Below, in pieces: positions 1 to 16,656 of a stretch of 26,640 bases of DNA. The number at the start of each line of letters is the position of its first letter. Positions within the stretch are counted from its first letter, which is position 1. The notes under the pieces are model-generated. The model was not told the DNA's origin. It made no database searches and saw nothing but the letters and a program-made list of their open reading frames with translations. The DNA is from an uncultured Pseudomonadota bacterium (GTDB lineage Bacteria > Babelota > Babeliae > Babelales > GCA-2401785): contig CAYTZU010000001.1 of assembly GCA_964442725.1 (NCBI GenBank), forward strand, positions 1 through 26,640, in the 5' to 3' direction. A program made the translations under genes and the position numbers.

Positions 1-1392
1 CCTCATCACACGCTAATTTTGACAAACATGTTTTTCAAGGGTCTTGATGATTTTGAGGGCAACGGCCTGATTGTCGATCCCACGGCAAAAATAAAAATTT
101 CAAGAACTTCACTTTCGCTGAGCAGTCTTTACACTTTTTCATCAGGAACTCTTTCGGTTTTTGGCGACATTGCAAAAATTGTCTCTCCGGGCTTTGATTT
201 TACAATTACCGGTTCGGCAGTTTTAGAGCTTGATGGAACAACGCTTTGGTTTGACACGCTTGACCAGGCCAACGAATCCCCAGTCAAATTTACCAATGAG
301 TTGACCCAGCGGGTCTCTTTGAATGGTGGAACCATAAAATCGAGCAAAGGCGCCGATGGTGTCAATGGACTTGATGGTTCGCTGCCAGCTTCTGATAAAA
401 CCATAAACGTTGAATTTGCCGAACTGACAACAAACTTTGACATCACAGAGAGCAGCCGCCTAATTTTTGAAAATCCAACCGCTTTTATTCGCAAAATTGA
501 ACTGGATGGACGCGGCTACACAATTCGATTGCCAACCACGGCCAGCAAATATTTCATTATGGATCCAAATGTCCACGTGATCTTTAAAAACGTTGTTCTG
601 CGAGGATTTAATCCCGACGTAATTGACTGGGCCAGTGGGACAAAGATGAGTTTTGGCGAGGGAACAACGCTTGAACTTTCCTGCCCGATAAATTTGGATC
701 GTAGTTTTTCTGTTGTAGGAAGGACCTGCATTGATGGTCGAGGTGCAAGAATTAATCTTTTGCATGATGACGCGCTTCTTGTTGAGCCTCATGCAAATTT
801 AATCATAAGGAACGCAACTGTAATTGGCGCCTCTGGCGGACCTTTTGGTAGGCTTAGGGTGACAGAAAAATCAGCAGCTCCGACCTTTATAACGCTTCAA
901 GATTCTGGCCTTGCATTGGATGAAAATTATACCTTTTCCAACGGTTGTCTTGGTGTTTCATCGGACGCCAAAATATACGGTAGAGATAAGGTTTTTTCCT
1001 TTACCTCGACCGGCTCGATTGTCATTGATCCTAATTCGACCTTGACGCTTGATCACTCGATAACGTTTAGTTATGCACCGAGCATTCAACCCTGGGGGCA
1101 TAATCACTATGCTTCCAGCAAAGAGAGGATTGTTTTTTCCGATCCCAGTTCAACGCTTCATTTAAATGGTTGCACACTTTATTCAACGCACACAGGAATT
1201 CGCCTTAAAGATGGGCGGATTTTAGTTCAAGACGACGTGCAATTTATCAGTGTTGCAGGCATTGACGAGGGACCTTATGGTCATGGTGCGGCTCAAGACG
1301 GCGAGGAGATCGAGATTTTTGATTCAGTTCAAATAAAAATTTTATCTGGATCGGTTTTGTCAATTAATGGAAAAGTTCGATATAGGCTTTAA
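1..1392 (+). CDS. Beta-solenoid/beta-helix repeat protein, 5'-truncated, resembling a family expanded in Dependentiae
   Basis: Frame is open from base 1 (PHHTLILTNM...) to the stop at 1392. It is rich in short beta-strand motifs and has an internal repeat (LSLSSLYTFSSGTLSVFGDIAKI vs LALDENYTFSNGCLGVSSDAKI). The C-terminal STLHLNGCTLYSTHTGIRLKDGRI block is recalled as typical of TM6 proteins. Confidence 0.6.
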   Translation, partial: PHHTLILTNMFFKGLDDFEGNGLIVDPTAKIKISRTSLSLSSLYTFSSGTLSVFGDIAKIVSPGFDFTITGSAVLELDGTTLWFDTLDQANESPVKFTNELTQRVSLNGGTIKSSKGADGVNGLDGSLPASDKTINVEFAELTTNFDITESSRLIFENPTAFIRKIELDGRGYTIRLPTTASKYFIMDPNVHVIFKNVVLRGFNPDVIDWASGTKMSFGEGTTLELSCPINLDRSFSVVGRTCIDGRGARINLLHDDALLVEPHANLIIRNATVIGASGGPFGRLRVTEKSAAPTFITLQDSGLALDENYTFSNGCLGVSSDAKIYGRDKVFSFTSTGSIVIDPNSTLTLDHSITFSYAPSIQPWGHNHYASSKERIVFSDPSSTLHLNGCTLYSTHTGIRLKDGRILVQDDVQFISVAGIDEGPYGHGAAQDGEEIEIFDSVQIKILSGSVLSINGKVRYRL

Positions 1393-7166: not shown

Positions 7167-8267
7167 TTATTGATCAACTGAAGTTAAAGCGCGAAAAGGT
7201 TCTGCCAATCTATATTTCCTCGATTTGTTAGACGGATCAGCGATTTCCAAAAAACCCACTTGAGTCCATTTTCTACAAAGTGCGGCACTAGTTTGTTGCG
7301 TAAAGCCGAATAGATCGCCGATTTGTTTGGCACTAATCAGGTCATATTCTTTGAACAATTCTAGAACTTTACGTTGTTTTGCGTCCAACGTGCGAATTAA
7401 CTGAGAGTGATCTTTTTGGCCTCTATCCTTGCTTGAAATCATCTGAGAGACGACCTTTTCAAAAGCAAAAGCCATGCCTTGTATAAAATATTCGATCCAG
7501 GAAGTAATATCGCTTTGGGCTCTTCCAAGGTAATAATTGTGGGATGGTCCGATGCTTATGGCCCTGTAATAACCAAGTAAATTTTTTGCGTAATATTCCT
7601 CAAGAGAATAAAGGCCTTTTAAGTCATAGCCACCCAAATGCAAAATTAATGTTGTTAGCAATCGACTTGTTCGGCCATTGCCATCGTAATAAGGGTGAAT
7701 TGTGGCGAATTGATAATGTGCAATGCTTGCAACAATTGGACATGGCAAATCTTTACTCTCTTGGATCCAGGACGCCAAATCGTGCATTAGGATGGGCACA
7801 TCTCGAAATTCCGGCGGCATATAAACAATTCTTCCGGTTCCACCGTCTTTGATAACATTTTGTCCATCACGATAAGGGGTGGGCAAAATTCGAGATCGGC
7901 CGTTGCTCATGACCAGGGCATGCAGTGTTTGAATAACCTTTTCCGTTACCGGATGCTTTTGTGCAGCGTATTGTTCAAGTTGAGCCAATGCTGCGTAATA
8001 GCCCCTAACTTCATGTTCATCTCGTTCTCTGCCTGGGAAGTGACCTTTGAGAGTGATGACTTCTTTGATCTCATCGGGTTTTAATTGATTGCCTTCAATC
8101 ATTGTTGAATAATGTGTTGTAAACAGCTTTGCCGTCTCGCGCAGAGAGGCAAGGACTGTGGGATTGACGGGCAAGAAAAAAACTTTTTCTTTAGCGGCCT
8201 CAATTTTCATGAGGTATTCAGCAATAATTGGGGTGATTTGAAATACAGGTTTAAAATTGCTTGGCAT
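7167..8267 (-). CDS. Fic-domain protein (class II, internal inhibitory helix) with C-terminal winged HTH
   Basis: Fic motif HPYYDGNGRTSR; N-terminal inhibitory (S/T)xxxE(G/N) motif STMIEG; wHTH-like tail QRKVLELF...ISAKQIGDLFG...GFLEI...KYRL. Confidence 0.92.
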   Translation of the reverse strand: MPSNFKPVFQITPIIAEYLMKIEAAKEKVFFLPVNPTVLASLRETAKLFTTHYSTMIEGNQLKPDEIKEVITLKGHFPGRERDEHEVRGYYAALAQLEQYAAQKHPVTEKVIQTLHALVMSNGRSRILPTPYRDGQNVIKDGGTGRIVYMPPEFRDVPILMHDLASWIQESKDLPCPIVASIAHYQFATIHPYYDGNGRTSRLLTTLILHLGGYDLKGLYSLEEYYAKNLLGYYRAISIGPSHNYYLGRAQSDITSWIEYFIQGMAFAFEKVVSQMISSKDRGQKDHSQLIRTLDAKQRKVLELFKEYDLISAKQIGDLFGFTQQTSAALCRKWTQVGFLEIADPSNKSRKYRLAEPFRALTSVDQ

Positions 8268-8304
8268 AAAAGAGGCCCAAAAATTCTGGTTTTTATTCTT
8301 GCAT

Positions 8305-8345
8305 ATCGATATTTTAACGATAAAACAACGATAAGTTAACGATAA
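8305..8345 (-). promoter_or_regulatory. Phased operator-like repeat array overlapping a putative fic promoter
   Basis: AACGATAA at 8316, 8327 and 8338, plus degenerate ATCGATAT at 8305, all with exact 11-bp period. On the minus strand, TTAACT (8339-8334), N17, TAAAAT (8316-8311) lies inside the array. Confidence 0.65.
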
Positions 8346-8352
8346 ATTAATA

Positions 8353-9762
8353 TTAAATTACTTTATAGGCAGCCAAAGCGCGATTCCGAGAGGCTTCTAA
8401 GCTAATTATTGGTTTTGGATAATCAACTCCCAATTTTATGCCCGCCGAAATTAGGACCTTTTCAGGCGCTTTCCACGGTTTGAAGAGATATTTGTTTGGG
8501 AGGTTTTTAAGTTCAGGAACAAATTTGCGTGTGTAAAGGCCTTCTTTGTCAAACTTTTCGCCCTGTAGAATTGGATTGAAAATCCTAAAATATGGCGTAG
8601 GATCGACCCCACTTCCCGTTATCCATTGCCAATTAAAGCTGTTGCTGGCCAGATCAGCGTCGACAAGGCAGTCCCAGAACCAATTGCGACCCTCGTGCCA
8701 ATGGATCATCAAATTTTTGACTAAAAATGAGGCCACCACCATTCTTACTCGATTGTGCATAAAACCGGTCTGCCAGAGCTCTCGCATTCCAGCGTCAATT
8801 AGGGGATATCCGGTGTTTCCTGTTTTCCAAGCATTGAATAGTTTTTCATTATAATTCCAGGGGAAATGATCAAACTTTGCTTGGAAGTTCTTTTGATGTA
8901 ATTCTTTGAAATGAAACATTAAATAAGCCGAAAATTCGCGCCAGATGATCTCGCTGACAAAACAATCTTTATCTTTGATATTTGTGTTTCCAAGCTTTGA
9001 AATTCTCTCGATAATTTGATGTGGGGAGATTTCCCCAAAATGTAGATTTGGTGAGAGTTTTGATGTTTTATCAAGACCTGGGAAATCGCGATCTTTATCG
9101 TAGCCAGATAAGTCTTTTTTTATAAAATTATCCAGTTTTTTTTGTGCCGTACTTTCACCAAAATGCCACTCGCGCTTGATTTTTTGCTCCCATTTTTGGC
9201 CTGAAAATAGGCCAAAATCAGACAACGTTGTTTTATTTTCATGGTCTTTTATGAAAATCAAATTTTTTGGCTTTGGCAGAGGCTTGTCAAATTCGAGGGC
9301 GAGAACTTTGCGTTTAAAAGCTCCGAAAATTTTGTAGTAGGAGCCGTTTCCAGTTTTGATCTGCGTGGGATCGGTTAAATAAGACTGATTAAAAATTTTG
9401 TAGACAATACCGGCTTTTCTTAGTTTTTCCTCAATGATCCCGTCTTTGGCCAAAACCCAAGGCTCATAAGCGCGATTCCAAAAAACATTTGAAATTTCAT
9501 ATTTTTTGGTCAGGTTTAAAATTATTTTCTGACTGTCTCCAATGTAAAAATTGAGCTTATTTTCCATCGTTTTATTAAGTTCTTCAAGGGAATGATGGAG
9601 ATAAACTTTGCTAGCCCCACCAAGTTTAAATTCTTGGGTGGCGCAATCATCGAAAATATAGATGGGCAGGACCTTTCCAAGTTTTGACGCTTCTGCCAAA
9701 CCGGCATTATCGGAGAGGCGTAGGTCCTGCCGAAACCAAAATATTGAAACAACTTCTTTCAT
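8353..9762 (-). CDS. phrB: Deoxyribodipyrimidine (CPD) photolyase, cryptochrome/photolyase family, probably class III-like
   Basis: WFRQDLRLSDN; FAD-binding WKTGNTGYPLIDAGMRELWQTGFMHNRVRMVVASFLVK; PYFRIFNPILQGEKFD. Confidence 0.95.
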   Translation of the reverse strand: MKEVVSIFWFRQDLRLSDNAGLAEASKLGKVLPIYIFDDCATQEFKLGGASKVYLHHSLEELNKTMENKLNFYIGDSQKIILNLTKKYEISNVFWNRAYEPWVLAKDGIIEEKLRKAGIVYKIFNQSYLTDPTQIKTGNGSYYKIFGAFKRKVLALEFDKPLPKPKNLIFIKDHENKTTLSDFGLFSGQKWEQKIKREWHFGESTAQKKLDNFIKKDLSGYDKDRDFPGLDKTSKLSPNLHFGEISPHQIIERISKLGNTNIKDKDCFVSEIIWREFSAYLMFHFKELHQKNFQAKFDHFPWNYNEKLFNAWKTGNTGYPLIDAGMRELWQTGFMHNRVRMVVASFLVKNLMIHWHEGRNWFWDCLVDADLASNSFNWQWITGSGVDPTPYFRIFNPILQGEKFDKEGLYTRKFVPELKNLPNKYLFKPWKAPEKVLISAGIKLGVDYPKPIISLEASRNRALAAYKVI

Positions 9763-9773
9763 ATTAAAATTTT

Positions 9774-10454
9774 TTATTTTGTTACTAATCTGCCCTTTTT
9801 GATTTCGCCTTTCACCTCTGATTCGTTGAAAATATGAACTTCGCCCCCTTCTTGCTCGAAAATGATGTCACCGGAAATGACAGTTCCTTCTTTCAACCTT
9901 ATAATTTGTTTTTTACTTTGGCTCCATTGAAACCAGTGCGTTGTTATCTTTTTAACTACAATATCATTGGCAATACTACAATTACTAAAAGTTGCGGTCT
10001 GGCAGGCAATTTCCATAGCTTTAAATTGTCCGTTAGATATATCGGCGTCTCCTGTTAATTTTGTGCTTTCAGTGACCTCAATAATATTTCCTTTCAATGA
10101 ACCATTGATAACAATATCTTGTGAGTGAAGACCTCTGACATCAAAGGATCCATTAACCTTTAGGACTTTACAGTTCAGATTTTTGCCTTTCCCACTTCCG
10201 TTAATTTCAAGCACATCTTTTATAGAAAGATTATCAAATTTTAGAGAGCCATTGATCTTTAAGTGGTCATATTGCTCATTTTTCGCACTTGTTTGTCCAT
10301 TTATCTCTGTCATGCTTTTCTCCTGAGAAATAAATTTTTTGCTCGATTGTTGCGAATTTTGGCTCGCCATCCATGCTCGTTGCCAGGCATAGAAATTCAT
10401 TAAAACTAACAAAAAAGTGAGATGCTTTTTATTGTACAAATTTTGGCTCCTCAT
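9774..10454 (-). CDS. Exported beta-helix protein with INGS repeats (bactofilin/polymer-forming-like)
   Basis: Repeats LKINGSL, LEINGSG, LKVNGSF, IVINGSL; C-terminal ISGDIIFEQEGGEVHI; hydrophobic N-terminus. An alternative TTG start at 10439 has GAGGAG 7 nt upstream. Confidence 0.6.
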   Translation of the reverse strand: MRSQNLYNKKHLTFLLVLMNFYAWQRAWMASQNSQQSSKKFISQEKSMTEINGQTSAKNEQYDHLKINGSLKFDNLSIKDVLEINGSGKGKNLNCKVLKVNGSFDVRGLHSQDIVINGSLKGNIIEVTESTKLTGDADISNGQFKAMEIACQTATFSNCSIANDIVVKKITTHWFQWSQSKKQIIRLKEGTVISGDIIFEQEGGEVHIFNESEVKGEIKKGRLVTK

Positions 10455-10511
10455 TAAATTTTCAAATCAATAGTCCCCTCTCAATTGCTTTAATTCAATG
10501 TTAAGTTTTTA

Positions 10512-12308
10512 TCAAATCTTTTCGTCGCTCAAAAAACCATTAATTTGAGCATTCCAAAGCTCCTTGTACAGACCGTGTTTGTTCAAAAGCTCATGATGGC
10601 TGCCGTCTTGAACAATTTTGCCTGCCTGGAAGACTAAAATTCTGTCCATATTTAAAAGTGTTGAAAGTCTATGGGCAATGGCAATGACAGTTTTTTTGTT
10701 CTCGCTTGATGCAGATGACTCATTCATGAGTTTTAAAAGGCTTTCTTGGATTTCGTGTTCTGTCACCGAATCAAGTTGAGATGTGGCTTCGTCCAAGATC
10801 AAAATTGGAGCATTTTTTAAGAAAGCTCTGGCAATCGAAATCCTTTGCCTTTGGCCGCCGGAAAGCTTGACTCCGCGTTCTCCGGTAAGAGAGGCGTATC
10901 CATCATGCAGTTTGACAATAAATTCATGAGCGTGGGCCGCCTTTGCTGCTTTGATGACCTCTTCATTGCTGGCTGATTCAAGTCCATAGCGAATATTTTC
11001 CATAATTGTTCTGTGGAATAAAATCGAATCTTGGGGAATTACGGAAATGGTCTTTCTCAAGGACTCTTGAGTTGCCATATTGATTGGCTGTCCATCGATT
11101 AAAATGTTGCCATCCGTTAGGTCATAGAGTCTCAAAATCAAGTTTACAAAGGTGGTTTTTCCGCCACCAGAATGCCCTACAAGACCAACTTTTTGCCCGG
11201 ATTCAATTTTGATTGATTTGTTTTCAAAAAGCGGTTCGAGCCCACTGTAGTTAAACTTAACTTTTTCAAAAATTATTTCTCCAGTCGTCACCTTCAGGTC
11301 GAAAGCATTGGGATGGTCGATAATTTTTGGTTTTACCAGAATTGTTCGCAGGGCCTGGGTTGTGCTACCAAAGTGTCTTGATAGCTGCGAAAATTCAAAA
11401 CCAATTTCCCATAAGTGACTTATTATTTGAGCGTTTATCGTAATAACGAGGGCAAAGTCTCCAATTGATAAAATACCCTTCTGGCGGCCGCTGACAAGAA
11501 AATAAAAATTGAAAATTGAAAGTATTAAAAATGTTATGTCATAAAACCACCACAAAAAATTATATGCTACGTTTAATTTTCTGTCCGCAATGACTTGCTC
11601 GTCTAAGACATGACTCAAATCAGCGATTTCATGCTTTTTTGCCGTAAATAATCTGACGGCTAAACTATTTGAAAGTGTATCGACAAATTTGCCTGAAATT
11701 ACAGCCTGTTTTTCAGAGAAAACGTCTGCCAAATTTGTTAAATATTTGGTTAGAGAAAGTGCAACAGCAGTAAAACTCGTTGCCCAGACAAGCATTGCTA
11801 CGCCAAAGACGGTGCTAACTTTCCATAAAATTATAATGGCACAAAAGACAAGCATGATTTTTATAAGAATTCTTTGTGCAAGAATGACCATTTGAGGGAT
11901 GTCTTCAGTTAAATCGTTGATTTTACCCGCAAGACTCCCAGAAAAATTATCCTGGAAAAATGAATTATCTTTGTCAACCAAAAGCTCCATGCATCGCATT
12001 CCAATGTTTTTTCGCATTATAGGGAGCATGTCTGTTTGGATAAAATAATCATAACATCGGTAACCAAGCGATTCGATAAAAGCTAGTCCCATGTAGGCTG
12101 AAATTGGCAAAAAAAGGCACTTGAAAAGATTTTTGTTGGCACCAAATTCAAGTAGGTCTATGAGAATTTTTTCAATATAAGGTAAAAATATTTTCCCGGC
12201 TATCTCGCTGCACATTTGAATAAAAATAAACAAAATATGGAATGGGAAAGGACTTATGCACGAGATAATAAACGACCAGATCTGGATTGGCCTTATTTGG
12301 TTGCTCAT
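10512..12308 (-). CDS. ABCB-type (MsbA/Atm1-like) fused permease-ATPase exporter
   Basis: N-terminal TM helices; Walker A GHSGGGKTT; signature LSGGQRQR; Walker B ILILDEATS; H-loop IAHRLST. Confidence 0.95.
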   Translation of the reverse strand: MSNQIRPIQIWSFIISCISPFPFHILFIFIQMCSEIAGKIFLPYIEKILIDLLEFGANKNLFKCLFLPISAYMGLAFIESLGYRCYDYFIQTDMLPIMRKNIGMRCMELLVDKDNSFFQDNFSGSLAGKINDLTEDIPQMVILAQRILIKIMLVFCAIIILWKVSTVFGVAMLVWATSFTAVALSLTKYLTNLADVFSEKQAVISGKFVDTLSNSLAVRLFTAKKHEIADLSHVLDEQVIADRKLNVAYNFLWWFYDITFLILSIFNFYFLVSGRQKGILSIGDFALVITINAQIISHLWEIGFEFSQLSRHFGSTTQALRTILVKPKIIDHPNAFDLKVTTGEIIFEKVKFNYSGLEPLFENKSIKIESGQKVGLVGHSGGGKTTFVNLILRLYDLTDGNILIDGQPINMATQESLRKTISVIPQDSILFHRTIMENIRYGLESASNEEVIKAAKAAHAHEFIVKLHDGYASLTGERGVKLSGGQRQRISIARAFLKNAPILILDEATSQLDSVTEHEIQESLLKLMNESSASSENKKTVIAIAHRLSTLLNMDRILVFQAGKIVQDGSHHELLNKHGLYKELWNAQINGFLSDEKI

Positions 12309-12349
12309 CGATTGAAAAACCTTTTGGAGCCTATTTGTTTCAGTTTTTA

Positions 12350-14488
12350 TTAACTGCTTGGAACTATGGGCAAGAGTCTACCACGATTTTTTCGTTGCAG
12401 CCAATTTTTAACTCTTTGGTAATGCTCTGGACCACGGTGTCCAAAATTATTGTTACAGAACTTGCGATCACAAATTAATGTTGAATTTAGGTCGATTTTT
12501 ATATGCAGACCACCATTGACAAACTTTCCTTTTGGTTTTTTTAAAGCTCTTTGGCATCGTTGTGCTTTATCAAATGGAAACGGTAAGCCACTTGGCGCAA
12601 ATTTTTTATTTGGACAGCCTTTTGGACTTTGGAATTGACAACACGCCTGTTCGTTTGTTTTAAACCTTGAATACGGTGGCATAAATTTGTCCATCACTTT
12701 GCGATCGGGTTCCGTTGTTGGCCATTGCAACCAGAACTTTCGTCCAAGCTTTCCAAACTCTGAATAAACGTAACTCCAGAGAGATTCTGGGTCACCGATT
12801 GCTCTAAAGTTCGAAGGATTTGTGTTTGCTGAACACAAAACATGGTCGAGGAATTCCGCTTTACCAGTTTGAGATAGACAACTAAATCCAGTGTTATTTT
12901 CAATAAGCCCAGCTGTTCTTTTTTTAAGCTCTTCAAGCGCATCCTTATGGTTTTGTGGAGCTGATCTACTGCTGTCCAAGTTGAAGTCTCCCATGACTAT
13001 GAATGGCAAATTGTTTTGACGGGCGATGTCCTCAACTAGCTTTTCTGTATCAAGCATCGGGAGGTGGACATTGAAAATTAGGCAAATTTGTTTTCCGTTG
13101 AGCGATAAAATTGCAATTTGATGTCTAGGCAGAGCTTTTCCTTTGGCTGTAGCTGTAATAAATTCTAAACTCAAACCAGAGCCATTTCTAACGTAAATTG
13201 AAAGGCCGTGTCCTGGAGTAGTTCCTGAAGATTTGGCTGATAGAGAGAATGCTGCAAGACTGTAGTCGTTTGGTATAAGCAAACCTTGGTGGCCATCCTG
13301 AATCTCTTGACATAAAATTAAGTCTGGAGACTCATTTTGAGCCAAAGAATCTAATTGCTTTTGTAAGTTGTCATATTTTGTCTTACATAATCTATCCAGA
13401 ACATTTGATATTTGAGCTTTGTCTGGATCGAGGGCTTGATTGTTGTTGGCCCAAAGGATTGTTTTTAGATCATCACGGAATGCGTGCTCTGCGCAAACAT
13501 TAAAAGAACAGATTTTTAAGTTTTTTGTGCCGACTTTAAATTCTGCAATTATGCTTTTATGGTCAGAGCCCCATGGTGTTGAATAAACAATTGCTGGAGA
13601 TCGAGCTGGAAGCGGTCTGGCTGGAGCAATTGGTTTGGTTGCAGGAACTGGTACTGGCATGGGTAGATTTGATTGGCCTGGACCTTGAGGAACATAAGGT
13701 CTAGCGCTTGAACCTGCTAAAGGCCTTGGACTTGGTCTAGGGTTGGATTTTGGTTGTACTACTGGACTTGGCCTTTGACTGATTTGTTCAAGTAATTTGT
13801 CGATGGCAAGCAAAAATTGACCAACTTGACCCACATCCATGAGAAAATATTGGCCTTTTTTCTTGTGGTGAGTTTTAATTGTGCTTACTAGGCCTGATTC
13901 TATGTTTACTAGTTCTGCTGATTTAAGACCGGGAAAATTTTTATTAAGCCATTGATTTTTTTTACTTTGAGTTCGCTTTACATCAAGATATTGCTTTTCA
14001 AGTCTGATGCAATCCAAGAGCATGTATAAAAGTTCATGCATAATAAGATTTGCAGTTACGATATTTTCACAGTTGCTTTGTGTCAAAACCATTGGTTCTA
14101 GTTGATTTAATTTTGAAATGATTTCTTGAGAATCTGATGTTCTACTATTAAAAAATACCTTAAATACGATGCTTTCTGGTGAAAGCTGAATTTTGTATAA
14201 AAACGATCTATTTAATCGTACGAGTTCCGTGTTTAACTCACTCACATTGTTTATTTTTAGAGCAGGGGCGATTCCAAGATTTTTTGCATGAATTATAAGA
14301 TTTTTTATCAGTGTCTTGTGATCATTTAACCCAGCAGCGATGACCATTTTACCGGTCCTCTTTCCTCTGGCTCCAAAGCTCTGATCAATCAGTTCTTTTT
14401 GCGCAATGGTTGCTCTTTCAGGCCTGCACAGCTCAATTTTGCCAAGAAAGGCTAAAATAATTAAACTCAATAAGGTTTTTATGTTCAT
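12350..14488 (-). CDS. Secreted endonuclease/exonuclease/phosphatase (EEP) fold protein with permuted motif order
   Basis: Signal peptide, helical N-domain and Pro-rich linker, then motifs in the order GSDHKSIIAEF, LKICSFNV, DLILCQEI, NVHLP, IVMGDFN, LDHVL, followed by a Cys/His-rich tail. Confidence 0.8.
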   Translation of the reverse strand: MNIKTLLSLIILAFLGKIELCRPERATIAQKELIDQSFGARGKRTGKMVIAAGLNDHKTLIKNLIIHAKNLGIAPALKINNVSELNTELVRLNRSFLYKIQLSPESIVFKVFFNSRTSDSQEIISKLNQLEPMVLTQSNCENIVTANLIMHELLYMLLDCIRLEKQYLDVKRTQSKKNQWLNKNFPGLKSAELVNIESGLVSTIKTHHKKKGQYFLMDVGQVGQFLLAIDKLLEQISQRPSPVVQPKSNPRPSPRPLAGSSARPYVPQGPGQSNLPMPVPVPATKPIAPARPLPARSPAIVYSTPWGSDHKSIIAEFKVGTKNLKICSFNVCAEHAFRDDLKTILWANNNQALDPDKAQISNVLDRLCKTKYDNLQKQLDSLAQNESPDLILCQEIQDGHQGLLIPNDYSLAAFSLSAKSSGTTPGHGLSIYVRNGSGLSLEFITATAKGKALPRHQIAILSLNGKQICLIFNVHLPMLDTEKLVEDIARQNNLPFIVMGDFNLDSSRSAPQNHKDALEELKKRTAGLIENNTGFSCLSQTGKAEFLDHVLCSANTNPSNFRAIGDPESLWSYVYSEFGKLGRKFWLQWPTTEPDRKVMDKFMPPYSRFKTNEQACCQFQSPKGCPNKKFAPSGLPFPFDKAQRCQRALKKPKGKFVNGGLHIKIDLNSTLICDRKFCNNNFGHRGPEHYQRVKNWLQRKNRGRLLPIVPSS

Positions 14489-14628
14489 AGCTGGGCTCTG
14501 TAAATAAATAATATTTGATTTAGCGCTTTAATTTTATGTAACAGGGTTTTTAACTTAAATAGTTTTGATTTTCTATGGGCTTTATTTTCCAATATCGATT
14601 TTCTCAAAAAAAGAGGTTTTAGATTAAA

Positions 14629-16656
14629 ATGAGTAGCGAAAAGTGTCATGTTTGGGAGCCAAAAACCAATACAATAAAGCCGGTTTTGAAGTATGGAGAG
14701 AGTTGTTTAGACTTTGAAAGTAGTAAATTTTATGTCACGACCCCAATTTATTATGTCAACGCTAAGCCACATTTAGGCCATCTTTATACGACACTTTTGG
14801 CCGATATTGCGGCCAGATGGAATAAATTAAAGGGTAAGCAGGTTTTCTTTTTGACCGGCCTTGATGAGCATGGACAAAAAGTGGCTCAGGCGGCAGAGTT
14901 GGCTGGCACCGATCCTCAAAGCTTTGTTGATTCAATGGTGCCAAAGTTTAAAAATGTTTGGGCCAAATATGGCTTTACTTACGACAAATTTATCCGAACT
15001 AGCGATCAGGAGCATAAAAAAGCCGTTGTAAAATTAATCGAAACATTGCTTAAAAACGACCAGATTTATAAGTCGGAGTACACTGGTTTTTATTGTCAAC
15101 CAGATGAGACATTTATAAATCCTCAGGAAGCTAAGGAGTTTGAGCAGAACGGCAAAACTCTATGCCCTTCATGCGGACGCGAAGTTGGGAAAATCAGTGA
15201 GGAATGTTATTTTTTCAGGCTTTCTAATTATCAGGATAAATTACTTGAGTTTTATGCGCAAAATCCTGGTTTTATTCAACCCAAAGAGCGTTTGAACGAA
15301 GTCATTTCATTTGTTAAAAGTGGACTGAAAGATTTAAGTTTTTCAAGGAAAAGCGTGTCATGGGGAATTCCATTTCCAGGAGATTCAAAACACACAATTT
15401 ATGTTTGGGGCGATGCGCTTACAAATTACATCAGTGCAATCGGGTATGAGCAAAATACCGATGAATTCAATCTTTTTTGGCCCGTAGATTTGCATATTTT
15501 GGGCAAAGACATTTTGAGGTTCCATGCTGTTTATTGGCCAGCAATTCTGATGGCTGCCGGACTTGAGCTTCCAAAAAAAGAGCTGGTTCATGGCTACATC
15601 ATTATGGATAACAAAAAGATGTCAAAATCACTGGGAAATGTTGTTGATCCAAACAGTTTGGCCGATTGGTACGGTGTTGATCAGGTTCGTTATTATTTGG
15701 CCAGGAACATTCCAACCACACAGGACAGCCAATTTGCGCTCTGCGACCTTGAAGAATGCGTTCGCGCTGATTTGGCCAATAATTTTGGCAATTTGCTTTC
15801 AAGGACGATTTCATTGGCAAAAAACAATGGAATTGATTTTATTGAAGCGATTCCTGCGACAGAATTAAATCATGAAAGTTCAGAACTATTAAAAAACTTA
15901 AGCTTAGAAATTGAAAACTTTAGGTTTAACATGGACCAAGGCCTTTGCCACATTGCGCTTTCCGGGCTTGTTAAGCAGCTTTCAAACGCAAATGTTATGT
16001 TTCAAACATTTCAGCCGTGGCGCCTGGTTAAAAGTGATTATGATCTATTTCGACAGGTTATATGGACGGTTTTATGCGTTTTAAAAACCTGTGCAACGCT
16101 TCTTTGGCCGATCATTCCAAATAAATCTGAGCAGTTACTTAATTTAATCGGCTGCAAATTTTCTTGTGATGGCAATCCTCTTGGCAAAATAAAGTCCTTT
16201 GAAAAATTCAGTTTCCAGCTCAGCGAAATTAAAGAGCCTTTGTTTGAGAGGCCAGAGGAGCATTCCAAGAAAAACTTGTCTGAGGAAAAACCTAATATTG
16301 AGCCAGAAGAAAAACCTCAAGAGCTCGAGTTGATCGATATTTCAGATTTTGCAAAGATAAAAATGGCTGTCGGAAAAATTGTTGAAGCCGAGCAGGTTTC
16401 TGGATCTGAAAAAAACCTTAAATTAAAGGTTGATTTAGGATGCTTTGGGGTTCGTCAAATCCTTTCAGGAATTGCAAAACACTACATTCCACAAACAATA
16501 ATTGGGAAAAGCGCAATTTTTGTAATCAATTTGAAGCCTCGAAAGTTACTTGGTTTTGAGTCTCAAGGAATGCTTTTGTGCGCTATGTCAAAAGACGGAA
16601 TTTTGGAGATAGTTGTTCCAGAGAAGGGATCAATTCCAGGGACTTTAATAAGTTGA
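14629..16656 (+). CDS. metG: Methionine--tRNA ligase with C-terminal tRNA-binding OB domain
   Basis: FYVTTPIYYVNAKPHLGH (HIGH), KMSKS, knuckle YCQPD...CPSCG, and a Trbp111-like tail DISDFAKIKMAVGKIVEAE...SQGMLL. Confidence 0.97.
   Translation: MSSEKCHVWEPKTNTIKPVLKYGESCLDFESSKFYVTTPIYYVNAKPHLGHLYTTLLADIAARWNKLKGKQVFFLTGLDEHGQKVAQAAELAGTDPQSFVDSMVPKFKNVWAKYGFTYDKFIRTSDQEHKKAVVKLIETLLKNDQIYKSEYTGFYCQPDETFINPQEAKEFEQNGKTLCPSCGREVGKISEECYFFRLSNYQDKLLEFYAQNPGFIQPKERLNEVISFVKSGLKDLSFSRKSVSWGIPFPGDSKHTIYVWGDALTNYISAIGYEQNTDEFNLFWPVDLHILGKDILRFHAVYWPAILMAAGLELPKKELVHGYIIMDNKKMSKSLGNVVDPNSLADWYGVDQVRYYLARNIPTTQDSQFALCDLEECVRADLANNFGNLLSRTISLAKNNGIDFIEAIPATELNHESSELLKNLSLEIENFRFNMDQGLCHIALSGLVKQLSNANVMFQTFQPWRLVKSDYDLFRQVIWTVLCVLKTCATLLWPIIPNKSEQLLNLIGCKFSCDGNPLGKIKSFEKFSFQLSEIKEPLFERPEEHSKKNLSEEKPNIEPEEKPQELELIDISDFAKIKMAVGKIVEAEQVSGSEKNLKLKVDLGCFGVRQILSGIAKHYIPQTIIGKSAIFVINLKPRKLLGFESQGMLLCAMSKDGILEIVVPEKGSIPGTLIS

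Follow-up and report, generated by a model that had tools for sequence, protein, structure and literature searches.

The window analyzed here is a stretch of 26,640 nucleotides from contig CAYTZU010000001.1. According to its list of open reading frames and their translations, the minus strand carries at 12350..14488 a gene for a protein of 712 amino acids plus stop, referred to as P0001. All coordinates follow the numbering of the window, residue numbers are those of P0001 unless stated otherwise, and every feature of the gene described below lies on the minus strand. The central part of P0001 is an EEP (DNase I-like) core (residues 323-569; 12782..13522), as delimited by the Pfam domain PF03372, structural alignments with VIA-align and invariant alignment columns. 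The core opens with the first strand LKICSFNV, including S328 and N330 (residues 324-331; 13496-13519). Further along the chain follow Q394-E395 (residues 394-395; 13304-13309), FNVHL with H475 (residues 472-476; 13061-13075), GDFNL with D501 and N503 (residues 500-504; 12977-12991) and LDHVL with D548 and H549 (residues 547-551; 12836-12850). Canonical EEP domains carry SDH and a last strand at their C-terminal end. P0001 instead has the motif ahead of the core, in W306-G-S308-D309-H310 (residues 306-310; 13559-13573), with SDH at 13559-13567 and H310 at 13559-13561, and H310 precedes the first strand by 14 residues. W306, S308-D309-H310 and the ensuing strand form an element (residues 303-320; 13529..13582) that is recognized by alignments, structure models, docking and a hidden Markov model (HMM). 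Motif positions were verified base by base. The original prediction is thus borne out in placing SDH at 13559-13567 directly upstream of LKICSFNV, in reporting the remaining catalytic residues as present (N330, QE, H475, GDFN and LDH are all found) and in stating that no SDH follows LDHVL, where IGDPES stands. We consider it likely that the EEP domain of P0001 is a real circular permutation and that it is probably catalytically competent.

Downstream of LDHVL, the canonical SDH site is occupied by IGDPES (residues 564-569; 12782..12799), as located by the end of the Pfam match and by DSSP, and a helix follows. The next His is residue 662, within a Cys/His-rich tail. The LDH strand, FDH in some homologues, is taken here to be the canonical 'IDx' strand that contains Asp283 of APE1. 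It is not the catalytic SDH, because the Pfam match of the homologue P0007 stops at profile position 204, on FDHI. The match of PF03372 to P0001 covers residues 376-568 and profile positions 19-218 of 225 (E 5.9e-07; 29.9 bits against a cut-off of 24.5). Confined to these residues, the match includes neither the first strand nor the last motif. P0003, P0004, P0007 and P0009 score under the cut-off, P0008 gives no match at E up to 1, and several family members carry no precomputed Pfam match. Standard profiles do mis-score the domain, as had been anticipated, with a partial match in P0001 and several homologues under the threshold.

The family around P0001 is small. An exhaustive HMMER profile search over 1.84 billion representative proteins yielded only seven further proteins. 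One of these, P0005 (5185 aa, E 3.8e-27), is not an EEP protein but a repeat protein whose weak repeated matches were summed, and it was excluded. Word-based searches contributed P0009, P0011, P0012 and P0013, the last truncated at its N-terminus. The members fall into two groups. The long group (P0001, P0002, P0003, P0004, P0006 and P0008) carries WGSDH, WPSDH, WFSDH or WGADH upstream of the first strand. The compact group (P0007, P0009, P0011 and P0012; about 280-376 aa) carries F-[SP]-SDH-[LF]-P-[VI] directly upstream of ASFNVLNE, a match to the textbook EEP motif SDHxPV. In both groups, the first strand has the form S-F/L-N. Compact proteins end about 25 residues past FDHI, mostly without another His. 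A downstream His, named beforehand as a possible completion of the active site, does not complete it, because the compact subfamily stops so soon after the FDH strand and is mostly His-free there.

Conservation across the family centers on the catalytic positions. In an alignment of seven sequences (A1; 24-47% identity to P0001), W306, D309 and H310 are invariant. In an alignment of eleven sequences (A4; 15-43% identity to P0009), S328, N330, Q394, E395, G428, I457, H475, G500, D501, N503, D548 and H549 are invariant, and D309-H310 is kept in all ten sequences that have an N-terminus. A rough estimate from typical residue frequencies puts the chance of an SDH tripeptide at most 25 residues from the first strand at about 0.002. 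Stronger than this estimate is the retention of the N-terminal D-H in all ten full-length family members at 15-48% identity. The same conservation bears on the reading of the domain as a catalytically dead EEP, a pseudoenzyme or binding module, in which the C-terminal His was lost and the N-terminal SDH strand merely stabilizes the sheet. The absence of His from the canonical SDH site, which reads GDP, would fit such a pseudoenzyme, as would the low Pfam scores and the several homologues under the gathering threshold. A dead enzyme would hardly keep all other catalytic residues and the N-terminal D-H invariant over such divergence, though, and a purely structural strand has no need of W-x-S-D-H. 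In addition, when folded as a separate chain (see below), the segment contacts D548, D501 and the first strand. We regard a dead domain as rather unlikely.

Sequence comparisons that allow for a non-collinear order point to a circular permutation, as proposed in the original prediction. The family profile finds Nocturnin as its best match among PDB sequences (hmmsearch; E 5.1e-07 with A1 and 1.3e-10 with A4). With both alignments, a second, non-collinear piece places the N-terminal segment of the profile, W-G-S-D-H-k-a-i-i, on the C-terminal P-S-D-H-L-S-L-V strand of Nocturnin. BLASTP likewise gives non-collinear matches for P0009, pairing residues 19-30 with the final 12 residues of L006 and residues 17-30 with the end of L010. 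We also turned the 23 columns of the N-terminal segment into a separate HMM. Of 15 canonical EEPs compared to it, 14 had their best match at the C-terminal SDH, and 11 of these matches scored higher than any of 300 shuffled decoys. We further built a canonical EEP HMM from 14 EEPs of related genomes with a C-terminal SDH and compared it to sequences re-permuted in silico, with the core placed before the N-terminal segment. Re-permuted P0001, P0002, P0003 and P0007 align collinearly to position 296-297 of 298, whereas the sequences in native order stop at 233-263 or split in two. Relative to controls with shuffled N-terminal segments, re-permutation gains 2.8-6.2 bits for these four proteins. 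Together, the sequence comparisons indicate that the moved segment is homologous to the terminal element of canonical EEPs. A phmmer search against the PDB with a single domain sequence gave nothing useful.

Structure models agree with a permuted order. AlphaFold2 models residues 295-625 of P0001 with A1 at a predicted local distance difference test score (pLDDT) of 80.9 and a predicted template modeling score (pTM) of 0.83, with the N-terminal segment at about 88-90. P0009 modeled with A4 reaches a pLDDT of 86.4 and a pTM of 0.88, with the N-terminal segment at 94-97. In the P0001 model, SDH is immediately followed by a strand that DSSP assigns to model residues 18-25 (absolute 312-319), and a turn of two residues connects this strand to the first strand of the core at 28-36. 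Past the LDH strand (254-259), there is a strand at 264-270 and a helix at 273-285, but no final strand. In P0009, SDH at residues 19-21 precedes strands at 24-29 and 35-42, and the later strands at 267-272 and 275-278 are followed by a helix and the end of the protein. The AlphaFold check proposed with the original prediction therefore returned two models of good confidence. Both pair an N-terminal strand with the first strand in a hairpin and lack a C-terminal last strand. In the models, N330 lies at the C-terminal end of the first strand and SDH at the N-terminal end of its hairpin partner. This register would place D309 and H310 at the catalytic end, beside N330.

Both models are four-layer alpha/beta sandwiches with VIA-align Z scores of 16-19.3 to solved EEPs over about 200-230 residues, and the P0001 model alone scores 16-17.6. 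Residues 26/28 to 273/276 of the P0001 model align to 58..304/305 of APE1, 6..229 of L1-EN, 120..354 of mouse TDP2 and 2..244 of Mth212. Residues 31-36 to 295 of the P0009 model align to 111..346 of human TDP2, 1..245 of DNase I, Nocturnin up to 403-408 and CNOT6L up to 516. These sequential alignments omit the N-terminal segment, and, by the numbering of the catalytic residues in these enzymes, they stop just short of the canonical catalytic His of each. A fold search in the ESM Atlas recovered only canonical EEP clusters, and in eight of the ten nearest large clusters listed the alignment begins at about residue 29-34. A protein-language search with P0009 found generic EEP clusters only. Two clusters of the AlphaFold database, A0A812WUH6 (513 aa) and A0A7W0FWH0 (347 aa), are the top Foldseek matches of the P0001 model. 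Their alignments begin at model residues 8-10 and so include the N-terminal SDH strand, which makes both clusters candidate permuted members from beyond the lineages found here.

The segment also docks onto the core when the two are folded as separate chains. ESMFold2 was given residues 299-322, residues 323-580 and Mg without alignments, in three runs and with three controls. The docking score (ipSAE) is 0.93 in the three runs compared to 0.07 for the best control. The mark used for docking is reached by 51 of 78 solved complexes and by 2 of 108 mismatched pairs, in a calibration made up of chains of at least 30 residues. On the core, the interface includes 323-332 (the first strand with N330), 499-501 (M-G-D501) and 547-550 (L-D548-H549-V). 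Further contacts lie at 555-573, which covers the IGDPES loop and the penultimate strand, at 370-388 in a helix and at some loop residues. These contacts would place the segment between the first and the penultimate strand, reaching D501 and D548. The canonical SDH strand occupies the same slot and reaches the catalytic aspartates.

The models and the docking also speak to two further explanations. The N-terminal SDH might be what is left of an upstream EEP copy that has since been lost, a relic in decay outside the folded domain, and another residue such as H549 might complete the active site. Permutations usually arise by duplication and subsequent loss of both ends, canonical EEP genes lie adjacent in a related genome (G021), and H549 is invariant, all of which would suit a relic. 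Yet canonical EEPs with a retained C-terminal SDH commonly have IDH at this strand as well, and H549 is therefore no substitute for the catalytic His. The segment is moreover modeled inside the sheet at a pLDDT of about 90-97 in two subfamilies, and it is conserved in all members, whereas a relic would be expected to drift. A relic is thus very unlikely in our view. Alternatively, the segment could complete the core of a second molecule through a three-dimensional domain swap, making the protein an obligate dimer. Docking as a separate chain and the long, flexible Pro-rich linker upstream of the segment are compatible with such a swap. With only about four residues between the moved strand and the first strand and a hairpin in both monomer models, an intramolecular hairpin is the simpler reading, and we give the swap hardly any credence.

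Several observations weigh against an active, permuted domain. The gains from re-permutation are small, and they are nil for P0004, P0006 and P0008. Some alignments of the P0001 model (CNOT6L, ANGEL2 and Nocturnin) start at model residues 1-4. Both model alignments are shallow, with 7 and 11 sequences, and the predictors may have placed the SDH strand according to canonical EEPs they had learned. The docking interface as reported does not list E395 and H475. The geometry of the His is deduced from DSSP, the hairpin register and a contact list that is unpaired, and we infer the pairing of H310 with D548 from this same list. P0006 and P0008 have G-D-H at the canonical C-terminal column in addition to the N-terminal WGSDH, which could leave a C-terminal His able to serve in these two proteins.

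The evidence for a circular permutation nevertheless comes from several directions, namely the non-collinear matches, the two models, the alignments and the split-chain docking, all consistent with SDH and the last strand lying ahead of the first strand. Under this reading, P0001 would be a Sec-exported multidomain protein whose central domain is a naturally permuted, metal-dependent EEP phosphoesterase. The last strand, encoded ahead of the first, would connect to it through a tight hairpin (residues 320-323) and fill the slot between the first and the penultimate strand. H310 would thereby be brought beside D548, and D309 beside the metal ligands N330 and E395. In canonical EEPs, the Asp equivalent to D548 forms a pair with the catalytic His. 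N330, E395 and D309 would hold Mg2+, while D501, N503 and H475 would position the phosphate and the water. H310, polarized by D548, would act as in canonical enzymes. With Mg2+ as cofactor, the domain would be expected to hydrolyze a phosphate ester on a nucleotide or a nucleic-acid end. The EEP domain is most likely active and working like the branch of Nocturnin, CCR4, PDE12 and TDP2. A nucleotide or nucleic-acid-end substrate is tentatively favored over lipids, because Nocturnin-type enzymes and TDP2 score Z 18-19 compared to about 15.5 for DNase I, sphingomyelinases and L1-EN. The effector role and the substrates put forward in the original prediction are conjecture.

The modules surrounding the EEP core suggest a role outside the bacterial cytoplasm. 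Residues 1-22 (14423..14488) read as a hydrophobic, Sec-like leader that is also present in P0002 and P0003. The signal peptide claimed for P0001 is thus probably genuine and kept in orthologues, judging from the sequences. The leader is followed by an N-terminal domain (residues 23-240; 13769..14422) that BLASTP alignments find to be shared with P0002 and P0003 only. This domain has no Pfam match, and a protein-language and Atlas search gave nothing usable for it. A proline-rich linker (residues 241-299; 13592..13768), with a computed Pro content of 31%, leads to the permuted element. At the other end, a C-terminal Cys/His-rich module (residues 610-700; 12389..12661) is apparent from conserved Cys columns in alignment A2 with P0002, P0003, P0006 and P0008. 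P0002 and P0003 keep its pattern, CC-x7-C ... C ... H ... C-x4-C ... H-x4-H, and P0006 and P0008 keep part of it. A Pfam scan of the module gave no match, and the module may bind metal. P0004 and P0008 have a second hydrophobic stretch past the leader, where P0001 has its N-terminal domain, and may be membrane-anchored. P0002 (L032:5829-9005) carries an additional C-terminal extension of about 300 aa with a sub-threshold match to NADAR (E 3.1e-04; 21.5 bits against a cut-off of 35.1) and without a sequence match in the PDB. Since NADP(H) is a substrate of Nocturnin, NADAR was considered as a hint of NAD or ADP-ribose chemistry. The match is too weak and was not used functionally.

The gene neighborhood and the genomes provide context for the family. 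As is the case for P0001, the genes of P0002, P0003 and P0004 adjoin MetRS, which is divergently adjacent in four lineages (window 7167-16656, L033, L032 and L114). Downstream genes for an ABC transporter, a photolyase and a Fic protein are found in the window and in L033, and P0003 shares them. The conserved neighborhood identifies P0002, P0003 and P0004 as vertically inherited orthologues. Among the compact proteins, P0007 is encoded on a contig of 1.68 Mb, and the GidA of this contig shares 75% identity with that of an Oligoflexia metagenome-assembled genome (MAG). Judging from this similarity, P0007 sits in an Oligoflexia-like genome. Searches of 60 relatives, of the 260 other species genomes in the phylum of the window and of four Oligoflexia/Bdellovibrionota genomes recovered no member of the family. 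A search for related loci with a single domain sequence retrieved only distant canonical EEPs in MAGs of Kiritimatiellae and Planctomycetes. Genomes of the phylum of the window range from roughly 0.5 to 1.9 Mb, and the source bacterium is probably a protist parasite with a tiny genome. The leader, the Pro-rich linker and the extra modules, together with a genome of roughly 1 Mb that suggests dependence on a host, lead us to infer an action outside the bacterial cytoplasm, which would take place in or on a eukaryotic host.

Remnants at the C-terminus might record how the permutation came about. The canonical SDH column of the long group reads G-D-P, G-N-P or G-D-H, and IGDPES is possibly a vestige of the ancestral SDH motif. 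Such remnants fit a duplication followed by the loss of both ends. P0006 and P0008, which combine G-D-H at this column with the N-terminal WGSDH, may be permutation intermediates. A close canonical ancestor was not found among 14 EEPs from relatives. In a related genome, two canonical EEP genes, L019 and L021 (G021:C1:375946-378762), lie about 1.3 kb apart on the same strand. Their C-termini, F-S-D-H-A-[IV]-I, resemble the SDH-K-A-I-I of the long group. A permutation could arise from this kind of gene arrangement.

Few phosphoesterases have been studied as much as EEP enzymes such as APE1, DNase I, CCR4, INPP5, sphingomyelinases, CdtB and the L1 endonuclease, and circular permutation is in itself well known. 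Full-text literature searches found no description of a permuted EEP fold. A scan of four members against NCBIfam gave no significant match, with three lacking any match and P0009 showing a weak generic EEP match (E 0.0033; 16.8 bits against a cut-off of 144). Whether P0001 represents the first recognized natural permutation of the EEP/DNase I-like fold is evenly balanced in our judgment. In this case, it would define a small family of phosphoesterases that evolve fast and are exported or injected by bacteria with a host-dependent or predatory lifestyle (Babeliales-like and Oligoflexia-like). The hallmarks of the family would be an N-terminal Asp-His and a C-terminal SDH fossil (GDH, GDP or GNP) that marks duplication and truncation. 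A permuted family would mean that the EEP fold tolerates the strand of the catalytic His at the opposite terminus. As annotation pipelines judge EEPs by collinear motif order, permutation would also explain why such proteins go unannotated or score as truncated or dead. The GDH and GDP remnants would provide a natural example of the duplication-and-truncation route. The result moreover flags likely active secreted enzymes in obligate protist parasites that would otherwise be dismissed. We suggest that other 'truncated' EEPs are worth scanning for non-collinear SDH motifs.

Among known enzymes, the nearest branch by sequence and fold appears to be that of Nocturnin, CCR4, PDE12 and TDP2 rather than INPP5 or sphingomyelinase. 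The permuted proteins share an N-V-L-type first strand, a T/V-H-L motif, GDFN and long helices after the first strand with Nocturnin, CCR4 (CNOT6L), PDE12 and ANGEL2. Nocturnin is the best PDB sequence match (E 1.3e-10), and its branch reaches a VIA-align Z of 18-19 with the compact model. In the Nocturnin/CCR4 branch, however, SDH and the last strand are C-terminal, whereas they come first in the P0001 family, and identity is only 13-20%. Substrates of this branch include poly(A), NADP(H), 2'-5' oligoadenylate and 2',3'-cyclic phosphate. TDP2 is the top structural match of the compact subfamily (Z 19.3) and has the same core residues, but it has canonical topology and weak sequence E-values against the family profile (0.001-0.02). 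The assignment of the family to the Nocturnin/CCR4 branch is tentative, as TDP2 scores equally well structurally. TDP2, PDE12, Nocturnin and CNOT6L all score Z 18.3-19.3 with the P0009 model, and ANGEL2 also scores 18-19. With APE1, ExoIII, DNase I and L1-EN (PF03372), the family has in common the four-layer alpha/beta sandwich and the full catalytic set of Asn, Glu, His/Tyr, Asp-x-Asn, Asp and Asp-His. Compared to these enzymes, the chain order is rotated, and the profile match stops 7-20 positions early. Natural circular permutations are known from other folds, including DNA methyltransferases, saposin/swaposin and lectins. The event is the same, as a terminal element is moved while the three-dimensional site is preserved, and a duplication-and-truncation route is plausible here as well.

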